Shown piece after piece: positions 3,717 through 8,694 of a stretch of 13,986 nucleotides of DNA. Every line of letters begins with the position of its first letter. Position 1 is the stretch's first letter. This DNA comes from a virus: the UHGV virus genome UHGV-0373582; one strand, written 5' to 3'. The notes under the pieces were generated by a model. That model worked only from the letters and a program-made list of their open reading frames with translations, had not been told where the DNA came from and searched no databases. The position numbers and the translations under genes were made by a program.

Positions 3717-5894
3717 ATGATTATCACCACTGAAAAAGAAACAATTCTTGGTAATGGTTCTAAATCAAAAGCATTTAGCATCACAGCATCTCCTAAAGTA
3801 TTTAAAATTCTGTCATCTGATTTGTATACAAACAAGATTCGCGCAGTAGTCCGTGAATTGATTACCAACATGATTGATGCCCATGCTCTCAATGGAAATC
3901 CTGAAAAATTTATCATTCAAGTTCCAGGACGATTAGATCCGCGATTTGTTTGCCGAGATTTTGGTCCGGGTATGAGCGATTTTGATATTCAAGGTGATGA
4001 TAATTCTCCTGGGTTGTATAATTCATACTTTAGTTCATCTAAGGCTGAATCTAACGATTTCATTGGTGGATTTGGTTTAGGTTCTAAATCTCCGTTTAGT
4101 TATACTGATACATTTAGTATTACTTCATATCATAAAGGCGAAATTCGTGGTTATGTAGCTTACATGGATGGCGATGGTCCACAAATTAAACCTACATTTG
4201 TAAAAGAAATGGGTCCAGATGATAAAACTGGTATTGAAATCGTAGTTCCAGTTGAAGAAAAAGACTTTAGAAACTTTGCTTATGAAGTTTCTTATATCAT
4301 GCGACCATTCAAAGATTTAGCTATCATTAATGGTCTTGACCGCGAAATTGATTATTTTCCGGATTTTGATGACTATTACGGCGTAAATCCAGAAAGATAC
4401 TGGCCAGATCGTGGTGGATTGTATGCTATCTATGGTGGTATTGTTTATCCTATCGATGGTGTTATTAGAGACCGTAACTGGTTAAGCATCCGCAATGAAG
4501 TGAATTACATTAAGTTTCCAATGGGTTCACTTGATATTGCTCCATCACGCGAAGCTCTTTCACTAGATGATCGTACCCGTAAAAATATTATTGAGCGTGT
4601 TAAAGAGCTTAGTGAGAAGGCATTCAATGAAGATGTAAAACGATTTAAAGAATCTACATCTCCTCGTCATACATACCGTGAATTGATGAAGATGGGATAT
4701 TCTGCTCGAGATTATATGATTAGTAATTCAGTCAAATTTACGACTAAAAATCTGTCATATAAGAAGATGCAAAGCATGTTTGAACCTGACAGTAAGTTAT
4801 GCAATGCAGGAGTTGTGTATGAAGTAAATCTTGACCCTCGACTGAAACGCATTAAGCAAAGTCATGAAACTTCAGCCGTTGCATCAAGTTATCGTCTGTT
4901 TGGTATTGATACAACAAAAATTAATATTGTTATTGATAATATTAAAAATCGTGTTAATATTGTCCGTGGATTAGCGCATGCGTTAGATGATAAAGAATTT
5001 AACAACACTTTGAATATTCATCATAATGAGCGTCTTCTGTTTATTAATCCGGAAGTAGAATCGCAGATTGATTTACTTCCTGATATTATGGCAATGTTTG
5101 AAAGTGATGAAGTTAACATTCATTATTTGTCAGAAATTGAAGCTTTAGTTAAAAGCTATATTCCAAAGGTAGTTAAAAGTAAAGCTCCTCGTCCTAAAGC
5201 TGCTACAGCATTTAAGTTTGAAATTAAAGACGGGCGCTGGGAAAAAGAGGAATTATTTACGCTCACATCAGAAGCAGATGAAATTACTGGGTATGTAGCG
5301 TATATGCATCGTTCTGATATTTTCTCTATGGATGGTACTACATCGCTTTGTCATCCATCTACGAGTATTTTGACTCGTATGGCTAATCTTATTGGCATTA
5401 ATGAATTTTATGTTATTCGTCCGCTTTTGCAGAAAAAGGTAAAAGAACTTGGTCAGTGCCAATGTATTTTTGAAACTCTGCGTGATTTATATGTAGATGC
5501 TTTTGATGCTGTAGATTATGATAAGTATGTAGGTTATTCAAGTTCAGCTAAACGATATATTGATAAAATTATCAAGTATCCTGAGTTAGATTTTATGATG
5601 AAGTACTTCAGTGTAGATGAAGTTTCTGAAGAATATACTCGCCTTGGTAATATGGTTAGTTCATTGCAGGGTATATATTTCAACGGTGGAAAAGGTACCA
5701 TCGGCCATGACATCTGGACAGTAACTAATCTTTTTGATGTATTGTCAAATAATGCTTCAAAAAATAGTGATAAAATGGTTGCTGAGTTTACCAAGAAATT
5801 CCGTATTGTTTCCGACTTCATCGGTTATCGCAACTCTTTAAGTGATGATGAAGTTTCCCAAATCGCTAAAACTATGAAGGCCCTTGCGGCCTAA
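3717..5894 (+). CDS. rIIA: rIIA protein (725 aa), GHKL-type ATPase-like N-terminal domain
   Basis: GAGGA RBS (taatgaggaaattATG). Length matches T4 rIIA. N-terminus has GHKL-like boxes ([27 protein letters not shown]). Immediately followed by rIIB. Confidence 0.88.
5498..5522 (+). promoter_or_regulatory. candidate MotA-box middle promoter inside the 3' end of rIIA (could serve rIIB)
   Basis: TGCTTTT at 5498-5504, 12-nt spacer, TATGAT at 5517-5522, about 385 nt upstream of the rIIB ATG. Could be a chance match within coding sequence. Confidence 0.25.
5878..5892 (+). other. short GC hairpin at the rIIA stop (AGGCC-cttgc-GGCCT)
   Basis: Inverted repeat AGGCC / GGCCT with a 5-nt loop, overlapping the last rIIA codons and followed by the AAGGA RBS of rIIB. 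Confidence 0.35.
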
Positions 5895-5905
5895 TAAGGA
5901 AAATT

Positions 5906-6844
5906 ATGTACAATATTAAATGCCTGACCAAAAACGAACAAGCTGAAATTGTCAAACTGTATTCAAGTGGTAATTACACCCAACAGGAATTGGCTGATTG
6001 GCAAGGTGTATCGGTTGACACAATCCGTCGTGTTTTGAAAAATGCTGAAGAAGCTAAACGTCCTAAAGTTACTATTAGCGGTGACATTACGGTTAAAGTT
6101 AATAGCGATATAGCTATTGCTCCAGTTGCTAAATCTGACATTATTTGGAATGCATCTAAAAAATTCATTTCAATTACTGTTGACGGTGTAACTTATAACG
6201 CAACTCCTAATACTCATTCAAACTTCCAGGAAATTCTTAATCTGCTTGTTACAGATAAATTGGAAGAAGCGGCGCAAAAAATTAACGTTCGTCGCGCTGT
6301 TGAAAAATATATTTCCGGTGATGTTCGAATTGAAGGTGGAAGCTTGTTCTATCAAAATATTGAATTGCGGTCTGGTTTAGTTGATCGTATTCTCGATTCG
6401 ATGGAAAAAGGCGAAAACTTTGAATTTTATTTTCCGTTCTTGGAAAATCTGTTGGAAAACCCAAGCCAAAAAGCGGTATCTCGACTCTTTGATTTCTTGG
6501 TAGCAAACGATATTGAAATCACAGAAGATGGTTACTTCTATGCTTGGAAAGTAGTTCGCAGTAATTACTTTGATTGTCATTCAAATACTTTTGATAACAG
6601 TCCTGGTAAAGTAGTTAAAATGCCACGTACTCGTGTGAATGACGATGATACACAAACTTGTTCTCGTGGTCTGCATGTGTGTTCTAAATCTTATATTCGT
6701 CACTTTGGCAGTTCAACCAGCCGAGTTGTAAAAGTTAAAGTACATCCTCGCGATGTAGTATCAATTCCGATTGATTACAATGATGCTAAAATGCGTACCT
6801 GCCAATACGAAGTAGTTGAAGACGTTACTGAACAATTTAAATAA
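5906..6844 (+). CDS. rIIB: rIIB protein (312 aa)
   Basis: AAGGA RBS; length matches T4 rIIB; directly downstream of rIIA in the canonical rII arrangement; N-terminal HTH-like stretch QELADWQGVSVDTIRRVL. Confidence 0.85.
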   Translation: MYNIKCLTKNEQAEIVKLYSSGNYTQQELADWQGVSVDTIRRVLKNAEEAKRPKVTISGDITVKVNSDIAIAPVAKSDIIWNASKKFISITVDGVTYNATPNTHSNFQEILNLLVTDKLEEAAQKINVRRAVEKYISGDVRIEGGSLFYQNIELRSGLVDRILDSMEKGENFEFYFPFLENLLENPSQKAVSRLFDFLVANDIEITEDGYFYAWKVVRSNYFDCHSNTFDNSPGKVVKMPRTRVNDDDTQTCSRGLHVCSKSYIRHFGSSTSRVVKVKVHPRDVVSIPIDYNDAKMRTCQYEVVEDVTEQFK

Positions 6845-6858
6845 GGGCTTCGGCCCTT
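6843..6858 (+). other. UUCG-tetraloop hairpin at the rIIB stop (AAGGGC-ttcg-GCCCTT)
   Basis: Perfect 6-bp stem with TTCG loop overlapping the rIIB TAA; no T-run follows, so more likely an RNA stability or processing element than a terminator. Confidence 0.5.
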
Positions 6859-6872
6859 AACTAAGGAAAATT

Positions 6873-7067
6873 ATGCTAGGTTATCAAGCACGAGTAAAAG
6901 AAGAATACGATCAATTAATGCTCAAAATTAATGCACTGAGCAAATTTTTAGAAAGCACAAAGTTTCTAACGATTAATGAAGTTGAGCAAGAATTACTGCT
7001 TTCACAGTTCATCTCAATGAAATCTTACGCAGATTGTTTAGAAAAAAGAATTGCACAATTCAAATAA
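6873..7067 (+). CDS. hypothetical protein (64 aa), predicted helical
   Basis: AAGGA RBS 6 nt upstream; bracketed by the rIIB-end hairpin and a terminator-like hairpin. Confidence 0.45.
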   Translation: MLGYQARVKEEYDQLMLKINALSKFLESTKFLTINEVEQELLLSQFISMKSYADCLEKRIAQFK

Positions 7068-7070
7068 AAT

Positions 7071-7094
7071 AAGGGGCTTCGGCCCTTTTGTTTT
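7071..7094 (+). terminator. candidate intrinsic terminator (GGGGC-ttcg-GCCC stem followed by TTTTGTTTT)
   Basis: GC-rich stem with UUCG loop (7073-7086) followed directly by a T-rich tract, 4 nt after the stop of the 64-aa ORF. Confidence 0.55.
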
Positions 7095-7104
7095 AAGGTA
7101 AATT

Positions 7105-7434
7105 ATGATTTATTGTATGAATATCGGTGACACCGACATAAAAGAAATTTCTCTACATGGTAATCATTACGTTAATATTGTGTACTGCAATAAATTCGAG
7201 TTTGGGCATGAAAAACTTGGAGTTCTTTACTGCAATGATGTTATAGTCATGGACAAAAAGAATCTCGATGAACTTGATCGTAATTCTTTAGATGAAAATG
7301 ATCGAATTTACTATGGTACTCTTAAAGTGTATAACGCTTATCTTAGTGGTAAAAAGGAAAGTTTAAATGCAGAAAACGAATCCTGGGTTACAGAGACTAT
7401 TTCAGATTCCGTCATTTACCCTATCGAACAGTGA
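7105..7434 (+). CDS. hypothetical protein (109 aa)
   Basis: ATG 7105 with AAGG upstream; uninterrupted ORF. Its 3' end overlaps the next ORF by 68 nt in another frame. Confidence 0.4.
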   Translation: MIYCMNIGDTDIKEISLHGNHYVNIVYCNKFEFGHEKLGVLYCNDVIVMDKKNLDELDRNSLDENDRIYYGTLKVYNAYLSGKKESLNAENESWVTETISDSVIYPIEQ

Positions 7435-7924
7435 CTTGACTAGTGAAATGAAGGTCAAAATTGCTGATACTGCAAGATACTCTTTAAAACAAAACCCGAA
7501 CCAGGATAAAGCAGAAGTTATCGAAAGATGCCGTATCGCTGTGTACGCAGAGTTTTTTGTGGCAGATTGGCTAAGCGGATATGTCAATAAAGGCCAAGAA
7601 GATGTCGATGATCCGTACACATATGCATGGGATGTATTGGCGCATCCAAAATACTGCGGGCTTCGTGTAGAAGTTAAGACACACCAAACTGACTCACGTT
7701 GGATTTCTGTAACAACAGGATGCAGCGGAGAGTATCCATACGGTTCTGGAATAAATCTAGGGCCCATTCTAAATCATCAAGTCGCTGACTGTATAATTAT
7801 ATTCAACACTAAAGAAATTCATCCAGGTGTCATCCAATACACTCCGAAGTTCATCGGTGACAGAGAAGACCTTCGTAAGGTTGTAAGAAAAAGCAACTAC
7901 AATGGATGGTATCTTTCCATTTAA
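7367..7924 (+). CDS. denB: probable endonuclease IV (DenB-like), 185 aa
   Basis: Good RBS (aaaaggaaagtttaaATG). The 185-aa length and the position between rIIB and ndd match T4 denB. I do not recognise the sequence itself, so this is a positional and length call. An alternative in-frame start is ATG 7448. Confidence 0.5.
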   Translation: MQKTNPGLQRLFQIPSFTLSNSDLTSEMKVKIADTARYSLKQNPNQDKAEVIERCRIAVYAEFFVADWLSGYVNKGQEDVDDPYTYAWDVLAHPKYCGLRVEVKTHQTDSRWISVTTGCSGEYPYGSGINLGPILNHQVADCIIIFNTKEIHPGVIQYTPKFIGDREDLRKVVRKSNYNGWYLSI

Positions 7925-7940
7925 AAATTTTCACAAAACG

Positions 7941-7970
7941 GTTTACATACCACAAGGACTGTGGTACTAT
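7941..7970 (+). promoter_or_regulatory. T-even early promoter (GTTTAC ... TGgTACTAT)
   Basis: GTTTAC at 7941-7946, about 17 nt spacer, TGgTACTAT ending at 7970, followed by the conserved leader ACAACTATCAAC; upstream of the ORF starting at 8005. Confidence 0.65.
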
Positions 7971-8004
7971 ACAACTATCAACTGATATGGATTTGGAGAA
8001 TAAA

Positions 8005-8211
8005 ATGTTTACTACAGCTGAATTAAAACGAGCAAAAGCTAAGAAAGGGCAAGGAAAATATAAAGCTGAATTAGTTAAAGAACTTCAGTTTGCTGAGGCT
8101 GAATTGAATTCAATGATTATTCAAAATGCTCCAGAAACTGAAATTGCTCTTAAACGTATTGCGAATAAGTGTCTTCGTGATGCAATCGTCGATCTTTTAG
8201 CAGATTATTGA
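8005..8211 (+). CDS. hypothetical protein (68 aa), helical and Lys/Glu-rich
   Basis: ATG 8005 with GGAGA RBS 5 nt upstream, downstream of the early promoter. The ORF-track start 7906 would run through the promoter and is rejected. Confidence 0.45.
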   Translation: MFTTAELKRAKAKKGQGKYKAELVKELQFAEAELNSMIIQNAPETEIALKRIANKCLRDAIVDLLADY

Positions 8212-8664: not shown

Positions 8665-8694
8665 GTTTACAAGACTGTTCCTCTGTGGTACTAT
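8665..8694 (+). promoter_or_regulatory. T-even early promoter (GTTTAC ... TGgTACTAT)
   Basis: GTTTAC at 8665-8670 and TGgTACTAT ending at 8694, followed by the same ACAACTATCAAC leader as the 7941 copy. Confidence 0.65.

Follow-up and report, generated by a model that had tools for sequence, protein, structure and literature searches.

Which proteins are encoded between rIIB and denB in the viral genome UHGV-0373582, and why does the second of the two small open reading frames (ORFs) found there run on into denB in another frame? The DNA analysed, called the window below, is 13,986 nucleotides (nt) long, and all features are given on its plus strand. Three ORFs beginning with ATG were confirmed in it: 6873-7067 with 64 amino acids (aa), called ORF64; 7105-7434 with 109 aa, called ORF109; and 7367-7924 with 185 aa, which is denB, the gene of T4 endonuclease IV. 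The last two share the 68 nt of 7367-7434, the denB frame being +1 with respect to that of ORF109. The initial annotation of this DNA had recorded both small ORFs, the 68-nt overlap and an internal ATG at 7448, all of which are present in the sequence, and had left the choice between a real long overlap with possible regulatory coupling, a denB start at 7448, and the non-expression or frameshifting of one of the ORFs. In our reading the overlap is probably a true dual-coding segment produced by overprinting, in which the N-terminus of DenB is the older part and the acidic tail of the ORF109 product, a member of the DUF7418 family, the later one, maintained by constraint at the protein level and with each gene having its own initiation.

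Gene order and occurrence of the overlap

The gene order in the window is rIIA (3717-5894), rIIB (5906-6844), the two small ORFs, denB, and then the ndd region. The 1.8-kb region is matched at 80-99% identity by 514 phage records, mostly Tequatrovirus, and the window is best placed in this genus of T4-like phages, with the order rIIA-rIIB-denB.1-ORF268c-denB. An identical layout is found in RefSeq RB14 (NC_012638), where denB.1 (64 aa), RB32ORF268c (109 aa), denB (185 aa) and the 68-nt overlap are all annotated, and the full 109-aa region is carried by 231 of 496 matching phage records; the arrangement is neither an oddity nor a sequencing error of the window. GenBank records (RB14, RB32, and ORF37 of D16359) have shown this layout for years; it is ordinary, annotated biology, and the understanding of T4 biology is unchanged by the present results. 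What is new is modest: the overlap appears to encode a selected acidic tail, ORF37 of T4 would be a decaying relic, and many records start denB at the wrong codon. Comparison with related phages identifies both small ORFs as real genes, and they can be regarded as early accessory genes of Tequatrovirus, each with its own Shine-Dalgarno sequence. The interval between rIIB and denB is variable among T-even phages, as initially stated, through deletions and through cassette and HNH insertions.

One of the two overlapping ORFs might be an artefact, whether of a sequencing frameshift, of pseudogene formation, or of a programmed frameshift that would fuse ORF109 to DenB. The A-run AAAAAG (7351-7356) before the overlap, whose length varies among deletion-type phages, would fit such an origin, but the same architecture recurs in more than 200 independent genomes, both genes are under purifying selection, and the denB frame is closed by a TAA directly before its ATG at 7367. 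Moreover, slippage by -1 at the A-run would lead into the third frame and not into that of denB, and there is no slip-prone P-site codon at the ORF109 stop. Together with the conservation of the denB start described below, purifying selection and the hundreds of independent genomes argue decisively against an unexpressed or frameshifted ORF, and we attach practically no probability to it.

The start codon of denB

DenB of the window matches phrog_1360 (E 1.5e-97), with the profile aligning from residue 1, belongs to the Pfam family PF26887, and is 98.9% identical to T4 DenB over residues 1-185. Its translation contains G71, W88, S176, G180 and W181, the residues hit by loss-of-function or escape mutations. 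A deoxycytidine (dC)-specific single-stranded-DNA endonuclease activity is known for DenB of T4 and T2 (PMC1635256, PMC12916289). DenB is also the trigger of retron Eco2 (PMC12916289). Its Shine-Dalgarno sequence AGGA (7355-7358), within AAGGAAAG (7354-7361), lies 8 nt before the ATG at 7367 and inside codons 84-86 of ORF109.

Searching with the 185-aa DenB by tblastn returned 1,092 phage records. In eight genera, among them Mosig-, Karam-, Moon-, Gelderland-, Jiaoda- and Winklervirus, the matches cover at least residues 1-176 at 52-73% identity, and in Acinetobacter phages they cover residues 3-184. An ATG aligned with 7367 is found in every lineage examined, with a Shine-Dalgarno sequence 5-9 nt upstream, and this ATG, the Shine-Dalgarno sequence and the first 27 residues are kept in at least 12 genera. 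With some variation, the lineages share the N-terminal motif M-x-K-x-N-P-G-L-x-R-L...D-L-T-x-E-x-x-V-K-I. A related N-terminus is present in SP1, where the preceding ORF overlaps denB by only 4 nt, and, with its ATG, in Acinetobacter phage Bhz15, where denB directly follows rIIB.

The in-frame ATG at 7448-7450, which encodes Met28 and would give a 158-aa protein free of any overlap, has been used as the start in MT884006, NC_024124 and NC_054924. Met28 is found only in Tequatro- and Mosigvirus, however; D, A, L or V occupies this position elsewhere, and the methionine is absent from Moon-, Jiaoda-, Karam-, Gelderland-, Winkler-, Kanagawa- and Gaprivervirus, from SP1 and from the Acinetobacter phages. 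The Shine-Dalgarno context of this ATG is poor, and recombinant T4 endonuclease IV made from the upstream ATG (ATGCAGAAAACGAATCCTGG) is an active protein of 185 aa and 21.1 kDa (PMC1635256). Because conservation extends to residues 1-27 and to the upstream ATG with its Shine-Dalgarno sequence, even where no ORF lies upstream, and not to Met28, there is a strong case that denB starts at 7367, and a start at 7448 is very improbable. The alignment of T-even denB regions, proposed initially as the way to settle this, thus shows the upstream start as the conserved one, with the overlap retained.

Many GenBank and RefSeq records, as well as a metagenome gene caller, shorten the N-terminus of DenB to give 110-177 aa instead of 185 (records L002 at position 1453, L013 at 1582, L014 at 1617, L016 at 1258, L017 at 1390, L018 at 1509, L023 at 981, and L030 at 1626), and in X20 a protein of 196 aa is annotated instead of 215. 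These truncations apparently serve to avoid an overlap with the DUF7418 ORF. Annotators should adopt the conserved start of the 185-aa form, a point that matters now that DenB is under study as the protein that triggers retron Eco2.

ORF109 is a member of the DUF7418 family

ORF109 (7105-7434), preceded by the Shine-Dalgarno sequence AAGGT (7095-7099, read from the sequence, 5 nt before the ATG), belongs to the RB32ORF268c/RB69ORF272c family. Its product matches the Pfam family PF24193 (DUF7418) with 115.3 bits against a cut-off of 27, residues 1-109 of the protein aligning with positions 1-101 of the 101-position profile, and it also matches phrog_2237 (E 3e-41). A profile search collected 43 protein clusters, all PF24193 and about 85-109 aa in length, and homologs occur in at least 12 genera. 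Over codons 1-87 the ratio of nonsynonymous to synonymous substitution rates (dN/dS) is 0.05-0.09, with dS up to 0.67. In the AlphaFold2 model, built from a 39-sequence alignment, residues 1-85 (7105-7359) form a beta-rich folded domain with a predicted local distance difference test (pLDDT) score of about 86-94, and the tail, residues 89-109, is disordered with pLDDT below 50. Four of the top five models found by Foldseek in BFVD are named DUF7418 (E 1e-10 to 4e-5). On account of the Pfam and PHROG matches, the low dN/dS and the confident fold, ORF109 can be taken as a real gene and a DUF7418 member. The initial description of it as uncharacterised still fits. NCBIfam gave no match, a sequence search against solved structures gave nothing below E 0.4 for either ORF64 or ORF109, and no paper naming DUF7418, ORF268c or ORF272c was found in the literature.

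The end of the folded domain coincides with the beginning of denB, so that only the tail NAENESWVTETISDSVIYPIEQ falls in the overlap. ORF109 comes as two allele groups with dS of about 0.6 between them (window 7105-7365 against records L001, L006 and L023), and dS in the adjacent denB is 0.07-0.25; this difference points to mosaic recombination within the interval. RB14ORF272, which is 109 aa long, has 91% identity to ORF109 and likewise overlaps denB by 68 nt, belongs to the allele group opposite to that of the window.

A fusion protein was also encountered. P0042, an ENA contig of 1,394 nt, encodes 184 aa with an RloB-like domain (PF13707, E 7e-11) joined to the C-terminal two-thirds of a Mosigvirus-type DUF7418 protein, which may reflect the insertion of a mobile element into the gene or else a chimeric call.

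Conservation and dual coding of the overlap

In the overlap (7367-7434) denB codons 1-23 are read one base out of register with residues 88-109 of the DUF7418 protein, the disordered acidic tail, so that the wobble base of each denB codon is the first base of a tail codon. The overlap is 68 nt long in Tequatro-, Moon-, Jiaoda-, Karam- and Gelderlandvirus, 65 nt in Mosigvirus, 80 nt in Winklervirus and EcS1, and 17 nt in Gapriver- and Kanagawavirus, and denB is always +1 relative to the DUF7418 ORF in all of these lineages. Purifying selection acts on both genes, with a denB dN/dS of 0.01-0.06 outside the overlap and the value given above for ORF109. The initial proposal of a real long overlap is thus borne out by a denB start and Shine-Dalgarno sequence conserved across genera and by an intact 109-aa frame on which purifying selection acts and which falls in a Pfam family.

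Since DenB is only 52-73% identical between genera, its synonymous sites should otherwise be nearly randomised. Raw base composition at third positions (G3) is suggestive but confounded by amino-acid content, and recoding tests were used in its place, in which each DenB protein is held fixed and synonymous codons are resampled from local usage in nine genomes. The tail frame remains open up to its observed stop in just 6-32% of the recodings. In these open ones the tail has a mean of 1.4-3.6 acidic residues, against 5-8 observed (P<=0.005 in nine of nine genomes). In a block-wise control the acidic excess is restricted, among the overlap lineages, to the block of denB codons 2-23 (P<=0.007 in seven of seven); of 49 other blocks 48 show no such signal, and the remaining one reaches P=0.015. 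Third bases at codons for the same amino acid are identical in 63% of cases in the overlap against 48% elsewhere. The overlap is thus conserved, with a codon usage biased toward an open and acidic second reading.

The tail might nevertheless be neutral read-through to the next stop, its conservation and acidity following from the constraints on DenB or from shared ancestry. Its predicted disorder, the variation in overlap length from 17 to 80 nt, the tailless homolog of SP1 and the fact that all three frames are open here in Tequatrovirus agree with this, and the DIYP motif of the tail is largely forced by the codons for P-T-F-T in DenB. The excess of acidity and openness persists, however, when recoding is conditioned on the DenB protein, and the G-rich wobble positions run contrary to the AT-rich usage of these phages. 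Furthermore, in four control phages whose upstream ORF is absent or ends at most 17 nt into denB (VR7, Entb45, Bhz15 and SP1) the same block gives no signal (P=0.14-1.0), and the tail frame has early stops in VR7, Entb45 and Bhz15, being open in SP1. Neutral read-through is on this evidence quite unlikely.

Overprinting is thus preferred. The N-terminus of DenB would be the ancestral reading, because it is conserved where no overlap exists, and the DUF7418 protein would have gained a disordered acidic C-terminal extension of 22 residues by reading into denB. Selection on denB wobble positions would keep this tail open and acidic, and the overlap would persist through protein-level constraint on the tail together with genome compaction, rather than through translational coupling. 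As the SP1 homolog has no long tail and does not adjoin denB, the long tail is best seen as a derived extension. Several points weigh against this interpretation. The nine genomes of the recoding test share ancestry, so that the per-genome P values are not independent, and wobble conservation tested column by column gives a marginal result (p=0.056, 8 columns). The overlap is only 17 nt long in two genera, the DUF7418 homolog of SP1 lies away from denB and lacks the tail, and phages in nature can do without the tail, the full ORF109 gene being missing from about half of the Tequatrovirus records.

Out-of-frame overlaps in phages, such as the overlapping genes of phiX174 and Rz/Rz1 of lambda, encode two proteins in one segment, the newer of which tends to be disordered, and constraint is visible at synonymous sites of the older gene. 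The present case differs from these in that only a C-terminal tail of 22 residues is overprinted and in that the overlapping gene is frequently lost. Classical coupling in operons of T4 and Escherichia coli involves ATGA or TAATG junctions. Adjacent genes on the same strand and a downstream start inside the upstream ORF are common to such operons and the present pair, but here the stop lies 68 nt past the start and not within a few nt of it, and a TAATG junction is found only in the degenerate remnant of PhiZZ30. The overlap accordingly resembles phage overprinting and would be an instance of it, not of classical translational coupling. It offers a clean test case for overprinting with natural controls, namely lineages with 0, 17, 68 and 80 nt of overlap, a widespread deletion allele and, in one genome, a cassette-duplicated overlap that leaves both genes whole.

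Natural variants and the expression of denB

T4, T2 and about half of the Tequatrovirus records lack a segment of 213 bp (7140-7352) that is in frame in ORF109; 265 of the 496 records match only the ends of the 403-nt query. The deletion junction lies in a short A-run (AAAAG; 7351-7356 in the window; records L003, L004 and L024-L029). T4 has lost these 71 codons in frame at A-run microhomology and one further codon, leaving a relic of 37 aa that is "ORF37" of GenBank D16359 and is unannotated in NC_000866. "ORF37" has the ATG, the Shine-Dalgarno sequence, the last 26 codons and the 68-nt denB overlap of ORF109. The length of the A-run varies among phages and places the relic in different frames: it is in frame with the tail in T2 and UFV06, extended to 42 aa in RB3, and in the third frame in three IMG/VR contigs. 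In PhiZZ30 it ends at TAATG, and in Sf22 and fPS-65 it has 4 codons and ends 11-12 nt before the denB ATG. Unlike ORF109, then, T4 ORF37 has been shortened to a 37-aa relic whose counterparts in related phages are frameshifted or reduced to 4 codons, and it appears to be a decaying remnant and not a gene.

These variants bear on the possibility that the overlap is a device of translational control, in which ribosomes on ORF109 would throttle the synthesis of toxic DenB, or would unfold the messenger and enable it, the tail being secondary. Such control would accord with the lethality of cloned DenB, with the position of the denB Shine-Dalgarno sequence and ATG inside a translated ORF, and with the conservation of frame and of a length of about 68 nt across genera. 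Termination-reinitiation coupling is implausible, however, with the upstream stop (7432-7434) located 65-68 nt past the ATG at 7367, and RNA structure around the denB start does not differ from that of shuffled sequences (z 0.04 and -0.04). The relics of deletion phages may be in frame, out of frame, or end at the ATG or 11-12 nt before it, and yet the denB Shine-Dalgarno sequence AAGGAAAG and ATG are intact in every deletion variant examined. DenB of T4 and of T2 is functional in vivo (PMC1635256, PMC12916289). Since deletion variants keep a working denB, translation across the denB start is not needed for denB expression, and the regulatory coupling initially suggested finds no support. Regulation by itself would also leave the acidic bias of the tail frame unexplained, and we consider translational control unlikely. 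Under the preferred overprinting, DenB would initiate independently from its own Shine-Dalgarno sequence inside the DUF7418 gene. A separate model with a hidden denB Shine-Dalgarno sequence was rejected, no significant RNA structure being found at the denB start.

A further variant is provided by record L010 (IMGVR_UViG_2706796257_000001, 355-2068), in which an insertion, a cassette of about 1.5 kb, falls exactly within the DUF7418/denB overlap. The cassette encodes a D12 N6-adenine DNA methyltransferase of 281 aa (PF02086, E 3e-37) and an ORF of 205 aa that has a sub-threshold Pfam match only (Hjc, a Holliday-junction resolvase family, E 0.005). A segment of about 75 nt of the overlap is duplicated, so that the tail and stop of the DUF7418 ORF, as well as the start and N-terminus of denB, are preserved. 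The interval contains a further mobile insertion in Gaprivervirus VR7 (L020, 527-1018), where a gene for an HNH endonuclease lies between rIIB and denB.1.

ORF64 is an ortholog of T4 Y16O

The initial description as uncharacterised does not hold for ORF64 (6873-7067), which is the ortholog of T4 denB.1, listed as Y16O in UniProt. It has a Shine-Dalgarno sequence AAGGA (6863-6867, read from the sequence) 5 nt before its ATG. The protein matches Pfam PF21825 over residues 4-61 with 69.7 bits against a cut-off of 24.8 (E 1.9e-19); this family is labelled "crAss001_48 related" in the Pfam copy used and "Sequestin" in newer Pfam, as given by precomputed labels on related contigs. T4 DenB.1 (Y16O; ORF64 of GenBank D16359) has the same length of 64 aa, the same position between rIIB and denB and the same flanking hairpins, and differs from ORF64 of the window by six substitutions (58 of 64 residues identical). 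Within Tequatrovirus dN/dS of ORF64 is 0.03-0.12. The AlphaFold2 model (pLDDT 95.9) is a helical hairpin with helices at residues 4-27 and 36-62 and a short helix at 29-33 between them; a fold search with it returned generic helical hairpins only. The family collected by phmmer comprises 255 cluster representatives, mostly stand-alone and 62-70 aa long, and ten longer homologs, inspected for partner domains, carry PF21825 only. Fusions of Sequestin with Tad2 and Acb4 have been reported (bioRxiv 10.1101/2025.07.12.664507).

According to Tal et al., proteins of PF21825 are small homodimeric sponges that bind 3'-cyclic ADP ribose (3'cADPR), the signal of type I Thoeris (bioRxiv 10.1101/2025.07.12.664507). 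Sequestin forms an antiparallel homodimer with two 3'cADPR pockets, the binding and sequestration of 3'cADPR having been demonstrated with members other than Y16O, and the pocket of SequestinB includes R7, E11, Q45 and R59, of which E, Q and R are essential (bioRxiv 10.1101/2025.07.12.664507). Residues R7, E11, Q45 and R59 are present in ORF64 and identical in T4 Y16O, the match to the SequestinB pocket being made by numbering and by the text of that paper. In the same 2025 preprint, T4 "Y16O" (64 aa) knocked into phage SBSphiJ conferred resistance to Thoeris (bioRxiv 10.1101/2025.07.12.664507); the published Y16O primers map exactly onto T4 denB.1. ORF64 is therefore a predicted 3'cADPR sponge against type I Thoeris, its function being transferred from the T4 ortholog: the product would dimerise, sequester 3'cADPR and so block the defence. 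It weighs against this part of the interpretation that the Sequestin function of ORF64 depends on the T4 ortholog as reported in a preprint.

The interval places a gene of an anti-Thoeris sponge family, a DUF7418 gene and the DenB nuclease side by side, which makes DUF7418 a reasonable candidate for anti-defence screens. A speculative reading, to which we give a low probability, is that DUF7418 itself is a counter-defence protein or an accessory linked to DenB, with the acidic tail (...ETEExxD-I/F-Y-P-x-E) acting as an interaction motif or nucleic-acid mimic. DUF7418 could then be a modulator of DenB, or protect the phage against a host system by which DenB activity is sensed, for example retron Eco2, and interleaving with denB would keep both genes co-inherited. 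The published work on retron Eco2 offers at most weak evidence against a role as DenB inhibitor. Circumstantial evidence for this lies in the position of the gene beside the anti-Thoeris sponge, its linkage to denB in about ten genera, its nature as an early small gene, its presence/absence polymorphism and its two divergent allele groups.

Hairpins and promoter-like sites

ORF64 was initially described as bracketed by a UUCG hairpin and a terminator-like hairpin, and both fold stably (z about -2.35) and are of the GGGCTTCGGCCC type. Hairpin 1 (6842-6859, TAAGGGCTTCGGCCCTTA, -11.1 kcal/mol) has a C(UUCG)G tetraloop, starts at the rIIB stop TAA (6842-6844), and is kept in T4 and RB14. Hairpin 2 (7071-7088, AAGGGGCTTCGGCCCTTT, -12.8 kcal/mol) follows denB.1 and is itself followed by TGTTTT, so that the element occupies 7071-7094; a U-run is found after hairpin 2 only and none after hairpin 1. 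Folding and a terminator scan identify the second element as resembling an intrinsic terminator. The scan found seven terminator-like sites, hairpin 2 among them, against 1.5 expected in shuffled sequences. The element is labelled a terminator in the fPS-65 record, and the Merlin record has a terminator at the corresponding position. Hairpin 2 thus scores as a predicted terminator-like element. No Rfam family was found anywhere in the window.

Scans for sigma-70 promoters and MotA-box-like sites found nothing on the plus strand between 6621 and 7942; ORF109 and denB are therefore presumably transcribed by readthrough of hairpin 2. In the 3' end of rIIA, upstream of rIIB (5753-5776), a MotA-box-like TGCTT precedes a -10-like TAAAAT, at the place where T4 has a middle promoter for rIIB; there is no site of this kind between denB.1 and denB.

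Downstream of denB, two near-identical promoter-like sites (7942-7970 and 8666-8694), each with TTTACA, a 17-nt spacer and TGnTACTAT, lie within a sequence repeat whose two copies are read as ...CGTIQLST... in separate ORFs. Both sites probably represent repeated early promoters of the T4 type. The first of them lies inside a 101-aa ORF (7906-8211) that shares 19 nt with the 3' end of denB and matches its PHROG from residue 34 onward. RB14 has a 68-aa gene at this place, and the 101-aa ORF is probably over-extended.

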